Both the position numbers and the translations under genes were made by a program. Positions 7,628 through 14,076 of a stretch of DNA of 64,000 nt are shown one piece after another; the stretch's first letter is position 1, and each line of letters starts with the position of its first letter. The notes beneath the pieces were generated by a model. It ran no database searches and was not told where the DNA came from. It worked only from the letters and a program-made list of their open reading frames with translations. Location of the stretch: NCBI GenBank assembly GCA_963765495.1, contig CAVXWP010000002.1:128001-192000 (forward strand), in the 5' to 3' direction. Source of the DNA: Blastocatellia bacterium (GTDB taxonomy: Bacteria > Acidobacteriota > Blastocatellia > UBA7656).

Positions 7628-8032
7628 TTAGCGATACTGCCTCTTGAGTAGCTGATGTCCAAATCCTTCATTCGACAATATCAATCCGGCGCGAGTGATC
7701 TTGCCGGTAAACTTGCTCCCCGGTGCGCCAGGATCGTCTTTAGGCAAAGTAAACTCAATGTTCATGCCGACTCGCTCTACCCTGACAAGCACAGGGTCAT
7801 TTGCTACACCGGAGGCGATTACAACGGTAGCCCACTCCCCGCCATAAACCGGGGTGATTATCACTTCCATTCCGCCGACGTCTCCGGTTTCAGGTTCAAG
7901 AGCCAGGTTGCTGTAGATTTCAGGCACGCCCCAGGCCGACACGCGATGGCGCTTTTTTTGAGCGACCGCGCCTGACGCGAGCACCGCTAAGAAAAGGGTA
8001 ATTACTATGATTCGAAGAGTTGGTTTAAGCAT
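7628..8032 (-). CDS. Small secreted hypothetical protein
   Basis: Signal peptide ending AVA; AGGA RBS-like sequence upstream; divergent from the ECF gene. Confidence 0.65.
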   Translation of the reverse strand: MLKPTLRIIVITLFLAVLASGAVAQKKRHRVSAWGVPEIYSNLALEPETGDVGGMEVIITPVYGGEWATVVIASGVANDPVLVRVERVGMNIEFTLPKDDPGAPGSKFTGKITRAGLILSNEGFGHQLLKRQYR

Positions 8033-8226
8033 AAATCATCCTGATAGAAATTCACACCTCGCTGACCCTACTCTATCTTGCGAAGATTCTCAAATCATGA
8101 TTATATGCGCCTGTTTCCGGATTGAAGTAAAGGAGTAGAACCACTTCCCGCAATCAATATCGCAGTTCGAAGTTTGATGCAGAAAGATAGTTGTGCCAAG
8201 ACATTTCTATCGAGAGATTAAATATC

Positions 8227-8856
8227 ATGGATGCCCCTTCCCCGCCAAAAAAAGACTGGACCCTGACTCAAAGCGCATTTGATAAATTGCTTGTTATTTT
8301 GAACCCCGACCGCGAGAGGGCAGCAGAAAAATACGAAATTATCCGCAAAAGGCTTATTACCTTCTTCGAATGTCGGGGTTGTACGGTTGCGGAAGATTGC
8401 GCCGATGTAACTATTAATCGAGTTGCCAGAAAGATTAGCGAAGGCAAGGAGATCTATTCCGGCGACCCGGCCTCCTTCTTTTTCGGGGTGGCGCACAAAA
8501 TTCTATTGGAATATTGGCAACGCTTGCCGAAGGATTCTAAGCCTCTCGAGGATGTGCTGATCGAAAGGCAGGGTTCAAAATCTCTGGATGAAACGAACGC
8601 AGATGAAGAGGAGCGCAGGGGGAGCGATCAGAGGTTCGAGTGCCTGGAATTGTGCCTCCAGGGGCTCGATCCCAACAATCGAAAAGTGATTTTGCGGTAT
8701 TATCAGGGAGAAACCGCAATAAAGATTAAAAACAGGCAGACTCTGGCAGAAGAACTCAGCATAACATTGAATACATTGAGAATTCGTGCCTTACGAATCA
8801 GGAAAAGGCTTGAGGGTTGCATCGACGATTGTCTCAAGCGATTACCCCTTGTATGA
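8227..8856 (+). CDS. ECF-type RNA polymerase sigma factor
   Basis: Region 2-like (RLITFF..AEDCADVTINRV..FFFGVAHKILLEY) and region 4 (CLQGL..NRKVILRYY..LAEELSITLNTLRIRALRIRKRL). Confidence 0.88.
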   Translation: MDAPSPPKKDWTLTQSAFDKLLVILNPDRERAAEKYEIIRKRLITFFECRGCTVAEDCADVTINRVARKISEGKEIYSGDPASFFFGVAHKILLEYWQRLPKDSKPLEDVLIERQGSKSLDETNADEEERRGSDQRFECLELCLQGLDPNNRKVILRYYQGETAIKIKNRQTLAEELSITLNTLRIRALRIRKRLEGCIDDCLKRLPLV

Positions 8857-8884
8857 AATGAAATTCTGTTTTGGCCAATAACTA

Positions 8885-11800
8885 ATGGGCGATCAAGACG
8901 CGAAAATGAATACAGATACAGATAAAACTGATCTGTTGATCGAGTATCTCTTAAGCAATTTAGCTGAGGAAGAAATGCTACGCATTGAAGAACAATTCTT
9001 TGTTGATGACATTGCGTATGAATCTCTTGAGTGCGCCGAGTATGAGTTGATAGACAGATACGTACAAGGCGAGCTTTCCAAAGAGCAGCAAGAGAAGTTC
9101 GAGCGATTATTTCTTTCCGTACCAGGCCGCCGCAAGAAACTGGAGGTTGCCATAGCTCTGAGCAAGTATGGTTCAACAGACGAAGAAATGGAAACCCGGG
9201 AGAGAACCGATAATAAGGGTAATCCTTTTCTGTTATCCCAGTTATTTTCGAATACTTATCTGAGGTTGGCCGCTTTTGTCGTTATAGGGCTTGGAGTCGG
9301 ATTTGGGACGTGGTATTCGTTCTTTTACAATTCGGGAATAAGTAAAGGGATGGCTGCGCTCGACAGTGCTTATCGTGACGGGCGTCCCGTTGAGTCTCGC
9401 ATATCCGGGTTGAGCTATGCGCCGTGGTCAGCCACAAGAGCCGGAGGTCTGCCCGATGGAGAGCCAACCCATCGCGAGCTTGCCGAACGGCTGTTGCTTG
9501 AGGCCGTGGCGGACCACCCCGACGCCGCATCTCATCACGCGCTCGGGCAGTTATATCTGGCTGAACGACAATTTGATAAAGCCATCGCGCAATTCAACGC
9601 GGCATTACAGTCAGCCCCGTCAAACCCGGGGCTTCAAAGCGATCTCGGAGCGGCGCTGTTTGAAAAGGGCAAAGCGAATAGATCAGGCGATGACTCAAAT
9701 AAGAATGCAGAACTGTTTGCCGAAAGTCTTCAACATCTCAATGAAGCTTTGAAGCTGGATTCCTCGCGACTGGATGCGCTCTATAATCGCGCCCTCCTGC
9801 ATCAGGAGATGAGGTTGCCCGAGCAGGCAAAAGAAGATTGGCAAAAGTATCTTGAGCAGGACTCCACATCGCAATGGACGGAAGAGGCAAGACGCAACCT
9901 GAGAAGAATAGAAGAACAATCGGGCAAAGTCTCTCAGAGTAAGGAGGAGATACTTGGAGCCTTTTTAAAAGCCTACGAGGCCAGAGACGACCGCGCGATG
10001 TGGGAGGTTATAGGTCAGAACAAGGATGTTATTTCAGAAAAGGACGTCTCGTCTCAGTTATTAAATTCATATTTCAATTCTTTGGCCAACAATCAAGAAG
10101 GTGAGGCCGCTCGAACGCTTCAAACATTGGCTTATGTTGGAGAGTTGGAGACCCAAAAAGCGGGTGATCCCTACCTGTCTGGTCTTGCTGAGTTTTACCG
10201 GCAGTCGCCTCGCAGCAAACTTCAGATGATTGCACAGGCTCGCGAACTGATAAGGGTCGGACACGACAACTACTTTCAGGAGAATATGACACAGGCCGTT
10301 GAGGCTTACCGCAAAGCCGGAACGATATTCGGCGATACCGGCGATAGATGGGAAGCTCTGACGGCAGATTACTGGACAGGGTATGCTCTTCTGGAAGACT
10401 CCAAGACACTCCAAAGCCTGCCATATCTATCGCAACTAACCCAAATCTGCGAAAGGGAGAATTACAAGTGGCTGCTTGCTCGTACTCTGCTTTCGCTTTC
10501 GAGCGCGCAATTCAATCTGAATGAATACTCAAAGGCTATCGAATACAATCATCGTTCGTTAAAACTTGCCAGGGAGATAGAGGATTTAATCGGCACATTC
10601 AACGCCTTGAGTGTCTTGATCGAGTATTACCGCTACATCGGCAACTATCAACAATCTCTATATTGCATTCAGCAGAGTCTGCCTCTGTTTGATTCCCCCT
10701 CGTTGAACCCGACGCAAATCTGGCGACACTGCTCGATAATCGCATGGGCATACAACTCCGCAGGGTTTTATGACGCGGCAACGGATTATCAAAAAGAAGT
10801 TCTACTCTACGCCGAGGCAAGGCAGGAGTCTTCGATGATTTGCGTCTCTTATGTGCACCTCGGATTGATATGCGGAAGAAAAGGGGATTACAGCGAGGCG
10901 CTTGCAAACGCCCAACTCGCCTATCAGAGAGCGGGAGAGATTCCGAACAAGGATATAAGCAACCAGATGATGGCCTACGTATCACTGCAAATGGGCCATA
11001 TCTACAGGCAAGGCGGAGATCTCGAAAATGCCCTCTCCAGGTATGACGATTCAATTGAACTATATAAGGCATCTGAATTCTCTACACATCTATATCAAGC
11101 TCATAAGGGCAGGCTTTACTGTTATATCTCAGAAGGTAAGGATCATCTGGTCAAAGAAGAGTTGCAAACAACATTGAATCTCATTGACAAGAATCGTTCA
11201 ACCATACTTGAAGAAGACAATCGAAACAATTTCTTTGACATCGAGCAGAGTGTATACGATCTGGCGATGGATTATCTGTATTCAAAGATGAACGATGCGG
11301 AGGGAGCCTTCGCGCTCTCTGAGGACTCCCGCGCAAGGTCACTGCTCGATTCCATGAATTCTGAGGTAAAGACTTTTGAGGAAGACGGCTCAACAAAGAT
11401 CAGTGTTGAAGCAATTTCTCACTCGCTCGCGCTCACAGACATCCAGCAACATCTGCCTGAACATGCTCAAATACTCCAGTACGCCGTGCTCGGTGACAAG
11501 GTAATAATGTGGGTTGTCACAAGAACCGGCATTCAGACCGTAAAGCAAGATATTATCGAAGAAGAGTTAAATAGAAAGATCGGCAACTTTGTCGGATCAA
11601 TTTCTGCCCCGTCTGATGGCAAAGACCAAGACATCGACGTTGCCGCAAGAGATCTGTATGACATTCTACTCAAACCCGTAGAGCCATTCTTGGACAGAGG
11701 CAAACAACTCTGCATAGTGCCGGACAAGGCTCTCAATACCCTGCCCTTCGACGCGCTCGTTTCTACGAGTTCGGGCAATTATTTGATAGAGGATTACTGT

Positions 11801-12523
11801 CTGGGATGCGCGCCGAGTTCGACCGTCTTTCTTCTATGTTGCGAGCGCGCAGCCGGGAAAGATGCGGCGAAAACCGAAAGGCTGCTTGCGGTAGGCAATC
11901 CGCGCTTTGACCGCAACACTTTCCCCGCGCTACTCGATATATCTTCGGCCCGTAGAGAGGCCGAGGGCATCGCTAAATTTTATGATTCAAAATCGGTCCT
12001 GACCGAGCCTGCCGCCCGAAAAAGGCCGGTTATATCCGAGATGGAAAAAGCCGACATCATTCATTTCGCCCTCCACTGCATCATCAATGAAGAAGCGCCT
12101 ATGCATTCGAAACTGGTGCTGGCGAAAGCCTCCAACGCAGATTCCGATGAGAATGAGGCAGACGGCGTTTTGCAATATTACGAGATATACAAAATAAAGC
12201 TGCCGCAAACACGAATGGTAGTGCTTTCGGCCTGTCAAACGGCGGTCAACCGCTATTACGGCGGTGAAGGGATGCTGAGCATCGCGCGCCCTTTTCTGGT
12301 CTCAGGAGTCCCGCTAGTTGTCGCAAGCCTCTGGAGGGTTGATTCCGTCTCCACGGCAGAATTGATGATCAGATTTCACGAGCACCGCAAGAGAGATAAT
12401 CTCTCATCAGCCGAAGCCCTCAGACGCGCTCAACTCGATATGCTCAAGGGGTCCGAAGAGAGCTACCGTCGTCCCTATTATTGGGCAGCCTTTATCGCAC
12501 TGGGCGGATGGACCAGCTATTAG
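8885..12523 (+). CDS. TPR + CHAT (caspase-like, clan CD) protease with N-terminal anti-sigma-like domain and TM helix
   Basis: N-terminal YLL..L.EEE..IEE..ELIDRYV.GELS domain; hydrophobic LAAFVVIGLGVGFGTWYSFF; TPR helices; CHAT motifs IVPDKALNTLPF, IHFALH, VVLSACQT, VVASLWRV, PYYWAAF. Confidence 0.93.
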   Translation: MGDQDAKMNTDTDKTDLLIEYLLSNLAEEEMLRIEEQFFVDDIAYESLECAEYELIDRYVQGELSKEQQEKFERLFLSVPGRRKKLEVAIALSKYGSTDEEMETRERTDNKGNPFLLSQLFSNTYLRLAAFVVIGLGVGFGTWYSFFYNSGISKGMAALDSAYRDGRPVESRISGLSYAPWSATRAGGLPDGEPTHRELAERLLLEAVADHPDAASHHALGQLYLAERQFDKAIAQFNAALQSAPSNPGLQSDLGAALFEKGKANRSGDDSNKNAELFAESLQHLNEALKLDSSRLDALYNRALLHQEMRLPEQAKEDWQKYLEQDSTSQWTEEARRNLRRIEEQSGKVSQSKEEILGAFLKAYEARDDRAMWEVIGQNKDVISEKDVSSQLLNSYFNSLANNQEGEAARTLQTLAYVGELETQKAGDPYLSGLAEFYRQSPRSKLQMIAQARELIRVGHDNYFQENMTQAVEAYRKAGTIFGDTGDRWEALTADYWTGYALLEDSKTLQSLPYLSQLTQICERENYKWLLARTLLSLSSAQFNLNEYSKAIEYNHRSLKLAREIEDLIGTFNALSVLIEYYRYIGNYQQSLYCIQQSLPLFDSPSLNPTQIWRHCSIIAWAYNSAGFYDAATDYQKEVLLYAEARQESSMICVSYVHLGLICGRKGDYSEALANAQLAYQRAGEIPNKDISNQMMAYVSLQMGHIYRQGGDLENALSRYDDSIELYKASEFSTHLYQAHKGRLYCYISEGKDHLVKEELQTTLNLIDKNRSTILEEDNRNNFFDIEQSVYDLAMDYLYSKMNDAEGAFALSEDSRARSLLDSMNSEVKTFEEDGSTKISVEAISHSLALTDIQQHLPEHAQILQYAVLGDKVIMWVVTRTGIQTVKQDIIEEELNRKIGNFVGSISAPSDGKDQDIDVAARDLYDILLKPVEPFLDRGKQLCIVPDKALNTLPFDALVSTSSGNYLIEDYCLGCAPSSTVFLLCCERAAGKDAAKTERLLAVGNPRFDRNTFPALLDISSARREAEGIAKFYDSKSVLTEPAARKRPVISEMEKADIIHFALHCIINEEAPMHSKLVLAKASNADSDENEADGVLQYYEIYKIKLPQTRMVVLSACQTAVNRYYGGEGMLSIARPFLVSGVPLVVASLWRVDSVSTAELMIRFHEHRKRDNLSSAEALRRAQLDMLKGSEESYRRPYYWAAFIALGGWTSY

Positions 12524-12595
12524 AGTGGATTGGCGTGCTGACCTGCTAATCCCAACTATTGGAGTTCAATTTATCGCTGAAAGGAGAAGACTAAA

Positions 12596-13558
12596 ATGAC
12601 AGCACATGTGATAGTAAAATTTGAAGGCCTTATGGTGTTTCACCGATGTCGGAGCACCAACCTTTATGAAGTTGGGATTTTGCAAAATGCTACTGGCCAC
12701 AAGCTAAGTATCTCTTACGCCCAATCAGGAGAATCAAATACAACCATTCCAGACTGGCGAATAGCCCAATTAAAGGGCGTTAATAAACACTGGGAACTTG
12801 ACTTGATAGACACGGAGACATCAACGCCCAGACGTGAACCGCATATACCTACGGGGTCACACCAGAATAGGCACGATTTAATGCCCGATGGCCGTCAATT
12901 CGATTTTAGCTGGATCATTGATCTTGAGAGTGAAGAATTCCACGGCCCAATCATGCATCCTATCAATATCAACGCGCTTAATCCGATTCTGCATCTGGGT
13001 AACGGCACGCTATCAACGCATTCCAAGACTGTTAGGCTGGACCGAAGAAGAGGGGCTAAATCTTATGAGAGATTTGGGTTTATAGCTGAAACAATAGCTC
13101 TATGCCTTGAATTTCGGGAGGGTGAAAAGGTTGTATTGAAGGTAAAAGATTCCGATGAAGAGGTTTTCCATTTAGAACATAGCCCCGGAGCCACTTATAG
13201 GGTGAACATTGTAAATTCATCAGGGCCTGCACATCCAGGGGACCCCGATCACTTCCAACTCTATTATGAGCATTTGTTTCCTAATATTGTCGAGAGGTTT
13301 GGGCTAAGGCTTCACACACCTCGTACTGAAGACGATTATCCACCCAACCCCTGTTTGGCACCGGGATTGACATGCATCCCTGCGACGGAGGAGCCTGAAA
13401 TGAAGGTAAGTCACGAACACAATGGTGAGAAACATACGGGGGAGGAAAACCACCACCATGTTATCGTTGAATCAACCGTCGCTGGTATTAATCTTACTGT
13501 AAACCCTTTCAGGTGTGGGGGTGTCGCCCTCGGCAACCGGCAAAACGATTTGCCGTGA
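12596..13558 (+). CDS. Hypothetical protein encoded downstream of the CHAT protease
   Basis: Strong AAAGGAG RBS; 320 aa; no recognisable family. Confidence 0.8.
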   Translation: MTAHVIVKFEGLMVFHRCRSTNLYEVGILQNATGHKLSISYAQSGESNTTIPDWRIAQLKGVNKHWELDLIDTETSTPRREPHIPTGSHQNRHDLMPDGRQFDFSWIIDLESEEFHGPIMHPININALNPILHLGNGTLSTHSKTVRLDRRRGAKSYERFGFIAETIALCLEFREGEKVVLKVKDSDEEVFHLEHSPGATYRVNIVNSSGPAHPGDPDHFQLYYEHLFPNIVERFGLRLHTPRTEDDYPPNPCLAPGLTCIPATEEPEMKVSHEHNGEKHTGEENHHHVIVESTVAGINLTVNPFRCGGVALGNRQNDLP

Positions 13559-13636
13559 ACTTGCTCCCATTGAAGACAGCGTCCTTCAGTTTTTGACCTG
13601 ATAGCAAAAGAGAGTGATAGTTATAAAGTTTGATTT

Positions 13637-13765
13637 GAAGAAAAAGCGAGTTGGAGTAAGCCACGGATGCGACAGATTTTCACAGATTAAATCATATAAG
13701 GTCTGATCTGCGAAAATCCATCGCATCCGCGTTCATCCGTGGCCTATTCCAACTCGCCTTTCTTC
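13637..13765. repeat. Palindromic intergenic repeat element (CCACGGATG...CATCCGTGG family)
   Basis: Arms GCGAGTTGGA..GCCACGGATG and CATCCGTGGC..TCCAACTCGC are reverse complements; homologous copy at 58282-58362. Confidence 0.85.
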
Positions 13766-13833
13766 CATATACCGCTTCATCAATATTCGCAGGCCTATTC
13801 GGACATTAAAACCCGCCTCGAAGCCGATTCGAT

Positions 13834-13862
13834 TTGACGCTCGCTCGGATCATTAGTATGCT
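13834..13862 (+). promoter_or_regulatory. Putative sigma70 promoter of the cox operon
   Basis: TTGACG-N17-TATGCT about 215 nt upstream of the coxM ATG. Confidence 0.6.
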
Positions 13863-14076
13863 ACGTTTCGTTGGGATTTTGGCTTTGTATCGGACAGTTC
13901 ATGACCGATATAACAGCCGGTTTTTAGGGGAAACAGGTCTAATAACCGCTTTTGTCTTGATTAGAGATTATTAGAGAAACCGACGGCCTTCGACCGGGGA
14001 TTCCGAAAACCCTTCGGTCACTACACAGGCATCGCACGCTCCACTCCGTATTGCGTTGCCGGGAGGAAAGCCCCCT

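Follow-up and report, generated by a model that had tools for sequence, protein, structure and literature searches.

Which regulatory circuit is formed when a divergent sigma factor, a large membrane-bound protein ending in a caspase-like CHAT domain and a small protein of no known family are encoded in a row is the question raised by a three-gene cassette of a soil Blastocatellia bacterium (Acidobacteriota). The cassette lies at positions 8227-13558 of the forward strand of a 64,000-nucleotide stretch (assembly GCA_963765495.1, contig CAVXWP010000002.1, positions 128,001 to 192,000), referred to here as the window, whose numbering is used unless another contig or locus is given. An earlier reading made from the letters alone (the sequence-only reading) had proposed an undescribed receptor-protease, independent of CRISPR, which controls its own sigma factor and processes the downstream 320-amino-acid (aa) protein. 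Our analyses favour, with moderate confidence, a regulated-proteolysis switch of the DdvS/DdvA type, in which the 320-aa protein, hereafter the partner, is a co-regulated third component. The design itself is not undescribed: a sigma factor of the extracytoplasmic function (ECF) type with an anti-sigma protein built from a transmembrane segment, tetratricopeptide repeats (TPR) and a CHAT domain is known as DdvS/DdvA, published in 2018 and 2024. What is new is the class-wide expansion of the sigma factor and the N-domain paired with it, in fused and split forms previously unreported in acidobacteria.

The three open reading frames (ORFs) share one orientation and encode, in this order, the sigma factor (8227-8856), a 1212-aa protein (8885-12523) and the partner (12596-13558), separated by gaps of 28 and 72 nucleotides (nt); the co-oriented and closely spaced arrangement first reported was recovered at the same positions, and a pattern scan inside the cassette found no terminator-like site on the + strand. 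The 1212-aa protein has the layout of a single-pass membrane protein of DdvA-like design, in which an anti-sigma-like N-domain, one helix, a scaffold with TPRs and a CHAT domain succeed each other. Its CHAT domain (residues 920-1207, 11642-12505) matched the Pfam model PF12770 at E 3.1e-67 (227.5 bits against a cut-off of 24; profile positions 3-288 of 289), and several TPR families of Pfam were matched between residues 198 and 730. The motifs IHFALH (12059-12076) and LSACQT (12224-12241) place the catalytic dyad at His1064 (12074-12076) and Cys1117 (12233-12235), and H1060, H1064 and C1117 are invariant in all 14 aligned relatives, which share 26-47% identity. Together with the hydropathy profile, these results bear out the hydrophobic helix, the TPR arrays and the intact CHAT dyad of the sequence-only reading.

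The closest known counterpart of this protein is DdvA of Myxococcus xanthus, the transmembrane anti-sigma factor with a periplasmic TPR-CHAT part that is paired with the ECF sigma factor DdvS (PDB 8ROT, 8RW5; PMC6061681, PMC11506125). DdvA consists of a zinc-bound anti-sigma domain of about 70 residues, one membrane helix, a flexible linker and a periplasmic scaffold-TPR-CHAT part of about 900 residues with the dyad His862/Cys907; it forms a dimer, in which each active site faces the linker of the other subunit, and its CHAT active site lacks a three-helix motif (PMC11506125). For the TPR-CHAT region of the 1212-aa protein, which spans about 1060 residues, a structure was predicted for residues 150-1212 with the 14 relatives as alignment (pLDDT 86.7, pTM 0.77), yielding an all-helical scaffold and TPR superhelix (residues ~194-830, 9464-11374; matched to TPR families and presumably extracytoplasmic). 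A Foldseek search of the PDB with this model retrieved DdvA as the best match (8rot_A, E 2.4e-19, TM 0.51/0.58 over 1104 columns), ahead of separase (E 2.8e-13) and Csx29 (E 1.6e-12). In the VIA comparison, DdvA was the sole solved chain aligned over nearly its full length, with 877 of its 897 residues aligned to model residues 1-1058 (Z 23.2, rmsd 6.9), and a sequence profile built from the 14 relatives likewise matched the DdvA chain 8rot_B at E 3.5e-16.

The likeness extends from the fold to the order of parts and genes. In both proteins a small N-domain, putatively cytoplasmic in the window, is followed by a helix, a juxtamembrane linker, a scaffold, TPRs and a C-terminal His-Cys CHAT domain; in both systems the anti-sigma gene is immediately preceded by a sigma gene of the same orientation, and a gene without assigned function follows the anti-sigma gene (MXAN_7287 after ddvA), the latter being a likeness of position only. 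The two systems differ in that the N-domain of the window lacks the CHCC zinc site of DdvA, the sigma factor belongs to another, divergent family with four invariant cysteines, and the 1212-aa protein is about 220 residues longer. The cassette is flanked by housekeeping genes, with no CBASS or CRISPR genes nearby, unlike ddvS/ddvA. They also differ in lineage, the window coming from Acidobacteriota (Blastocatellia), whereas DdvA-like proteins were reported by the DdvA authors only in Myxococcota and one Comamonas (PMC11506125). A full-text literature search, judged by titles and the opening lines of abstracts, returned no description of this cassette design in Acidobacteria.

In the N-domain (residues 17-95, 8933-9169), a helical motif of the type Y-L-L-G-x-L-x-E occurs twice in tandem, and two relatives of the domain encoded in the same genome (C8:174627-175511 and C1:532584-533612) carry a true HxxxCxxC motif at the aligned place, so that by alignment the N-domain reads as a zinc-less derivative of the HxxxCxxC anti-sigma domain. 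The same genome encodes two paralogues of the sigma factor, on contigs C6 and C1; a CHAT gene precedes each of them, and the product of the gene directly after each has an N-terminus that matches the 1212-aa protein at residues 7-146. The evidence that the N-domain is the sigma-binding part, drawn from such gene pairing, is indirect but consistent. One N-proximal hydrophobic segment follows, at residues ~125-147 (9257-9325), and a hydropathy scan of 16 relatives found one such segment in every case. If the N-domain is cytoplasmic and this helix is the only one to cross the membrane, the CHAT domain would come to lie in the periplasm, as it does in DdvA.

One neighbourhood survey was centred on the sigma factor. 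Of the 151 genomes sampled from the class, 106 contained the sigma family (E <= 1e-10; the tally includes one unpublished genome, G493), with up to 13 copies in a single genome; the family has 150 listed loci in the class, and 40 of these were sampled for their neighbourhoods (L050-L089, where L058 is the same record as L019). An N-domain gene directly followed the sigma gene in 39 of these 40 loci, and in 30 a CHAT protein was either fused to the N-domain or encoded at most 7 kb away. The fused type (9/40) carries anti-sigma, TPR and CHAT parts in one protein or, in L079, in adjacent pieces, and the partner gene follows in all eight loci that can be judged, L061 stopping at the contig edge. 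The split type (21/40) shares with the cassette the sigma family and the N-domain, with a TPR-CHAT protein encoded alongside; in contrast to the cassette, its protease and anti-sigma factor are separate proteins, the latter being a short one (N-domain, one helix and an outer domain of 115-225 residues, unrelated to the partner) with the TPR-CHAT gene within 7 kb, and the partner gene is absent from 21/21 such loci. The remaining ten loci had no CHAT gene in the fetched stretch, which in two of them was limited by contig ends.

Both arrangements coexist in the genome studied here, which encodes about 13 CHAT proteins and, outside the window, three split loci (C6:30175-35408, C1:867613-872916 and C8:174627-178841), each combining an exported TPR-CHAT protein, a sigma factor and a short anti-sigma factor; those on C6 and C1 have the same N-domain as the cassette, and that on C8 has a true HxxxCxxC. 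No other computational result speaks as strongly for the protease and the sigma/anti-sigma pair being functionally tied as this recurrent linkage in fused and split form. Among the loci sampled, the linkage further shows the partner to belong to the fused lineage only. The earlier proposal of a receptor-protease controlling its own sigma factor gains accordingly, since sigma, N-domain and CHAT genes travel together and DdvA is the best Foldseek match.

The sigma factor itself is divergent and ECF-like, scoring just under the cut-off of the ECF superfamily model. Its ORF opens at a TTG at 8191, and the alignment of relatives favours the ATG at 8227 as the start, giving 209 aa up to 8856. It matched TIGR02937 at E 7.5e-10 over profile positions 13-162 of 165, with 38.7 bits against a curated cut-off of 42.9, and its 14 relatives all matched the same model at E <= 1e-3, while Pfam region-4 matches stayed below cut-off. 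Four cysteines, C139, C143, C198 and C202, are invariant in 14/14 relatives and form one CxxxC just before sigma-4 and another at the C-terminus; they may constitute a metal or redox site on the sigma factor itself, the cognate anti-sigma domain having lost its zinc ligands. The similarity to the CASP-sigma model NF041236 (E 0.0034) is far below that model's cut-off. ECF54, an actinobacterial group with CHAT, subtilase and carboxypeptidase-domain neighbours (PMC8999054, PMC7826278), is an unconfirmed candidate relative of the cassette sigma factor.

Taken with what is published on DdvA, these features outline how the switch might operate. The zinc-less N-domain of the 1212-aa protein would hold the divergent ECF-type sigma factor at the membrane, which the protein would cross once, so that its DdvA-like scaffold-TPR-CHAT part, carrying the His1064/Cys1117 dyad, would face the periplasm. 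There the TPR/scaffold region would sense a cue from outside the cytoplasm and activate the CHAT protease, a step as conjectural for this protein as the ligand gating named by the sequence-only reading, and the protease would then remove the bulky outer domain, most likely by cutting the conserved juxtamembrane segment (residues ~163-193) of its own chain or of the other chain in a dimer. An M50-family site-2 protease and cytoplasmic proteases would subsequently free the sigma factor, which would raise transcription of its own three-gene operon. The window's partner would most likely be a cytoplasmic, co-regulated output protein and not a CHAT substrate, possibly a pro-protein needing a cut by a protease of its own compartment. 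The sequence parallels the model of the DdvA authors, namely that a signal induces the protein to cut its linker in trans and that RseP cuts next, in which the self-cleavage step is unproven according to the authors themselves (PMC11506125). An M50-family protease is encoded in the genome, which gives only permissive support because such proteases are ubiquitous.

Within the juxtamembrane segment, the peptide RPVESRISGLSYAP (residues 167-180, 9383-9424) is conserved and sits in a stretch that the model shows as non-helical (model residues 14-44); within it, pLDDT falls under 50 at positions 36-39 of the model. It is a candidate cleavage or docking segment. Motifs of the RPVESRISGLSYAP type were found also on some short anti-sigma factors without a nearby CHAT gene, and a role as cleavage site is therefore only a candidate one.

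A second survey, centred on the partner, asked how closely it is bound to the other two genes. When 400 other genomes from the phylum were queried, a single sequence found relatives in three of them and a 90-row profile in nine, eight of these in Blastocatellia; further relatives came from four genome records of Pyrinomonadaceae or Blastocatellia and from six metagenome contigs. This gave 22 partner loci including the window, of which 21 are assessable, L024 being too short to judge. A same-strand gene matching the profile of the 1212-aa protein over its whole length lies upstream of the partner in 20 of the 21, the exception being L048; the anti-sigma-CHAT gene is the immediate neighbour in 17 loci and is separated by one gene in three (L023, L045, L046). 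A sigma orthologue was present upstream in all 14 loci whose sequence extends past a full-length anti-sigma gene. In the seven other genomes first found to carry the partner, sigma, anti-sigma-CHAT and partner genes were co-oriented every time, with unconserved flanks. The partner hence co-occurs with this CHAT protein almost without exception, in 20/21 partner loci and 8/8 fused loci, where the sequence-only reading had foreseen that its proposal would fall if the two did not go together. By this measure of gene order the partner is an obligate, co-inherited third component.

Some partner loci depart from the common layout. In two genomes of one genus (L045:5021-8526, - strand; L046:2396-5907, + strand) the anti-sigma-TPR-CHAT gene is in two pieces, one of 430 aa with the N-domain, the helix and the first repeats, the other a TPR-CHAT protein of 725-727 aa without signal peptide, and a zinc-ribbon/CarboxypepD_reg protein is inserted ahead of the partner. 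A 1602-aa form of the CHAT protein at L044:1975-6783 has an N-terminal extension of 500 residues that matches no Pfam family, and a separate sigma gene was not seen there; a locus from another family of the phylum (L049:3151-7571) encodes a classical sigma factor and two HxxxCxxC motifs, being nearer to DdvA. Two tandem partner genes follow one anti-sigma-CHAT gene at L052:939-3088 (- strand), the second with an RR-containing, twin-arginine-like N-terminal extension, and tandem copies were seen also in L020, L024, L025 and L028.

The partner could not be linked to any known protein. It had no Pfam or NCBIfam family at E <= 0.1 and no sequence match in the PDB at E <= 10. Its model, computed from a 16-row alignment (pLDDT 77.2, pTM 0.79), has a beta-rich core at residues 1-257, a linker of low confidence at 258-303 and, at the C-terminus, a short tail; with this fold, Foldseek returned nothing at E <= 1e-3 from the PDB or from BFVD, the best score in the ESM Atlas was 0.78, below the useful range, and the highest Z in a wide VIA search was 2.4, no solved chain reaching Z 2.5. 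The possibility that it is the detached outer domain of the short anti-sigma factors was rejected (hhalign probability 0.3%). The partner is single-copy in its own genome. In an exhaustive profile search the family proved large in metagenomes: 1436 representative clusters passed a threshold of E <= 1e-3, and 166 passed E <= 1e-30. A word-indexed search with the 90-row profile added three further proteins only. His35, Gly161 and Cys307 are invariant over 90 diverse members, Cys307 lying in the conserved C-terminal tail. A His-rich insertion in the variable linker (residues 273-288, 13412-13459) is not kept in relatives.

No signal peptide was found on the window's partner, which starts directly at the first strand; its ATG is preceded by an AAGGAG box, and an upstream extension is excluded by a TGA that lies in frame 18 nt ahead. 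Across the family the N-termini vary: of 153 scanned representatives, 62 have a signal-peptide-like extension, 70 have none and start directly at the first strand, 12 have a non-hydrophobic extension and nine are partial, with equal cysteine content in the N-terminal classes.

This distribution bears on the proposal, put forward by the sequence-only reading, that the CHAT protease cuts the downstream partner, the processing being either the output or a step in the signal. Its precedent is Csx29, which cleaves the product of a neighbouring gene, Csx30, the inhibitor of CASP-sigma (PMC10028731). The near-constant position of the partner after a CHAT gene of the 1212-aa type, combined with its absence from all 21 split loci, fits this scenario, as does the low-confidence, variable linker ahead of the conserved C-terminal tail; moreover, the 62 representatives with a signal-peptide-like extension would share the periplasm with the CHAT domain, and none of the six assessable loci with a signal-bearing partner (L017, L018, L020, L025, L026, L029) has a second protease gene after it. 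For the window, the CHAT domain lies beyond the sole membrane helix and the partner, not extendable upstream, has no signal peptide, which makes direct cleavage topologically disfavoured, and the 70 representatives that begin at the first strand speak against it in the same way. Direct cleavage is plausible for the exported members of the family and disfavoured by topology in the window; as an account of this cassette we consider it unlikely, and the earlier claim is weakened to that extent.

The comparison with Craspase (Cas7-11, Csx29, Csx30 and CASP-sigma) is instructive in a more general sense. Both systems tie a TPR-CHAT protease to the release of an ECF-type sigma factor through cleavage of an inhibitor (PMC10028731, for Craspase), a step that in the cassette would be the proposed removal of the outer domain. 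Craspase, according to that source, is cytoplasmic, RNA-guided and activated by Cas7-11, and its inhibitor Csx30 is a separate protein, whereas the cassette has no CRISPR component and its putative inhibitor domain is fused to the protease. At the level of sequence the resemblance to Csx29 is confined to the C-terminus, the NCBIfam model NF041237 matching only the last 95 residues of the 1212-aa protein with 19.8 bits against a cut-off of 300.

Among signal-less partners, another kind of protease enters the neighbourhood. In 12 of 18 distinct loci the gene next to the partner encodes a second protease: an S8 subtilase in six (L021, L042, L043, L044, L060, L081), a trypsin/Nal1-like protease in four (L023, L046, L047 and, by likeness to L046, L045) and a papain-like C70 protease in two (L054, L079). 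Nine of these 12 proteases have no hydrophobic N-terminal segment, and the other three have one helix followed by an Arg-rich stretch. The association of the partner with four catalytic protease types, CHAT included, suggests a protein that is cut. The second proteases beside signal-less partners, the missing signal peptide in the window and the division of the family by N-terminus all count for the favoured view of the partner as an output and not a CHAT substrate.

A tentative idea, of rather low probability, sees in the partner family effectors of a new kind that proteases activate, in which the conserved Cys-bearing tail would keep the beta-rich core inactive until the linker is cut, by the periplasmic CHAT protease in exported members and by the adjacent S8, trypsin-like or papain-like protease in cytoplasmic ones. 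The sigma/anti-sigma-CHAT module would set its level, resulting in an envelope-triggered response that needs two keys and follows a gasdermin-like logic with an unrelated fold. The likeness to bacterial gasdermins is one of logic only, consisting in a constant small protein beside CHAT, S8, trypsin-like and papain-like proteases and in a short conserved C-terminal tail after a flexible linker; in contrast, the partner has no detected fold similarity to solved structures, and a likeness in membrane activity or toxicity is unsupported.

The partner might instead be a regulator, pseudo-substrate or lid, comparable to securin for separase or RseB for RseA, which silences the protease or the anti-sigma factor until the cue arrives. 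Such a role would agree with its strict co-inheritance with the fused anti-sigma-CHAT protein alone and with the co-oriented, closely spaced genes lacking a terminator-like site on the + strand, and the structures matched by the TPR-CHAT part include complexes of separase with securin. Signal-less partners face, however, the same compartment problem here, the recurrent second protease of three unrelated classes is left unexplained, and neither Foldseek against the PDB nor the wide VIA search revealed a likeness to known inhibitors. We regard this role as very improbable.

The DdvS/DdvA-type switch with a co-regulated partner, the reading we favour, has itself to be set against several observations that tell against it. 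With regard to the N-domain, residues 1-110 lack the His/Cys set of zinc ligands (CHCC or HxxxCxxC) that defines the domain of DdvA; the similarity to zf-HC2 (PF13490, residues 54-74) is weak (E 0.0057) and recurs at E <= 1 in only five of 14 relatives, and a profile of the first 200 residues had no match in the PDB at E <= 1, so that the match of the whole protein to DdvA may rest mainly on the scaffold and TPRs. The anti-sigma-like character assigned to this domain by the sequence-only reading has the weak zf-HC2 similarity and the pairing with sigma genes in its favour; no family was matched above its cut-off and the zinc ligands are missing. As for the protease half, the VIA Z scores of Csx29 (28.1, with 612 residues aligned at rmsd 10.3) and of the craspase TPR-CHAT (~26) exceed that of DdvA, and the CHAT half is therefore not specifically DdvA-like. 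On the predicted model, the overall design resembles DdvA, whereas the CHAT half looks like any complete TPR-CHAT; since, unlike that of DdvA, it fits the full Pfam model and scores higher to Csx29, it may keep the three helices that DdvA lacks.

Autoregulation and the fate of the partner add to these objections. A search for a conserved two-block promoter (5-mer/4-mer pairs with 14-19 nt spacing, a crude method) upstream of 14 orthologous sigma genes found none, the best pair occurring in four of the 14 against three to four in shuffled controls. Six loci with a signal-less partner, namely the window, L019, L022, L052, L065 and L074, lack a recognisable second protease, which leaves the pro-protein idea for the window without a candidate protease in the compartment where it would be needed. 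Genomes that are related do not count independently, and the locus counts given above describe a pattern and carry no statistical test.

Finally, the dyad of DdvA is in a resting state, its H862A and C907A mutants behaved like the wild type under the conditions tested, and the protein has no known signal (PMC11506125). The resting dyad and the mutants would fit a CHAT domain that is a non-catalytic sensor scaffold; the anti-sigma factor would then be inactivated by a conventional site-1 protease encoded elsewhere or by changing its conformation, and the partner would be an unrelated co-transcribed gene. The ten of 40 sampled sigma/N-domain loci without a CHAT gene in the fetched stretch point in the same direction, as they show that a CHAT gene need not be adjacent for the sigma/anti-sigma pair to occur. 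Against such a scaffold stand the invariance of the dyad and its surrounding motifs in 14/14 relatives at 26-47% identity, the end-to-end match to the Pfam CHAT model and the 30 of 40 loci that keep a CHAT protein fused or adjacent, and the linkage of the partner is far too faithful for a passenger. We therefore judge a purely structural role of the CHAT domain to be improbable.

The genomic setting of the cassette is compatible with its behaving as a self-contained unit. The region 8001-14000 has a G+C content of 0.44-0.51, as compared with 0.50-0.57 on either flank; the flanks are occupied by housekeeping genes in the window, and the flanking genes differ from locus to locus. The triad is therefore a self-contained cassette, given that no flanking genes are shared between loci, and its low G+C content together with the differing contexts in other genomes suggests that it moves as a unit. 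PADLOC matched the cassette only with a generic TPR model, without any match for the partner; judged by this tool and the flanking genes, there is no CBASS or CRISPR defence island near the cassette, and the flanks contain no cas genes. Directly 3' of the partner gene, a long imperfect palindrome (13617-13786), with 53-nt arms that are 74% complementary and a 33-nt hairpin pair inside, lies in the 500-nt gap ahead of an unrelated molybdopterin dehydrogenase operon. The runs listed as carrying the cassette are soil-metagenome DNA runs of one study, with no RNA runs among them.

In DdvA, the trigger and the proposed self-cleavage are unproven, and the protein was found by its authors in few lineages. 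The natural occurrence of fused and split forms in this class makes the step in which a protease would free its own sigma factor testable both in cis and in trans, and these forms, together with the partner, make open questions of DdvA-type signalling directly testable. The partner family, sizeable, of no known fold and tied to the fused version as well as to four catalytic protease types, is a concrete candidate for an effector or regulator of a new kind that is under proteolytic control.

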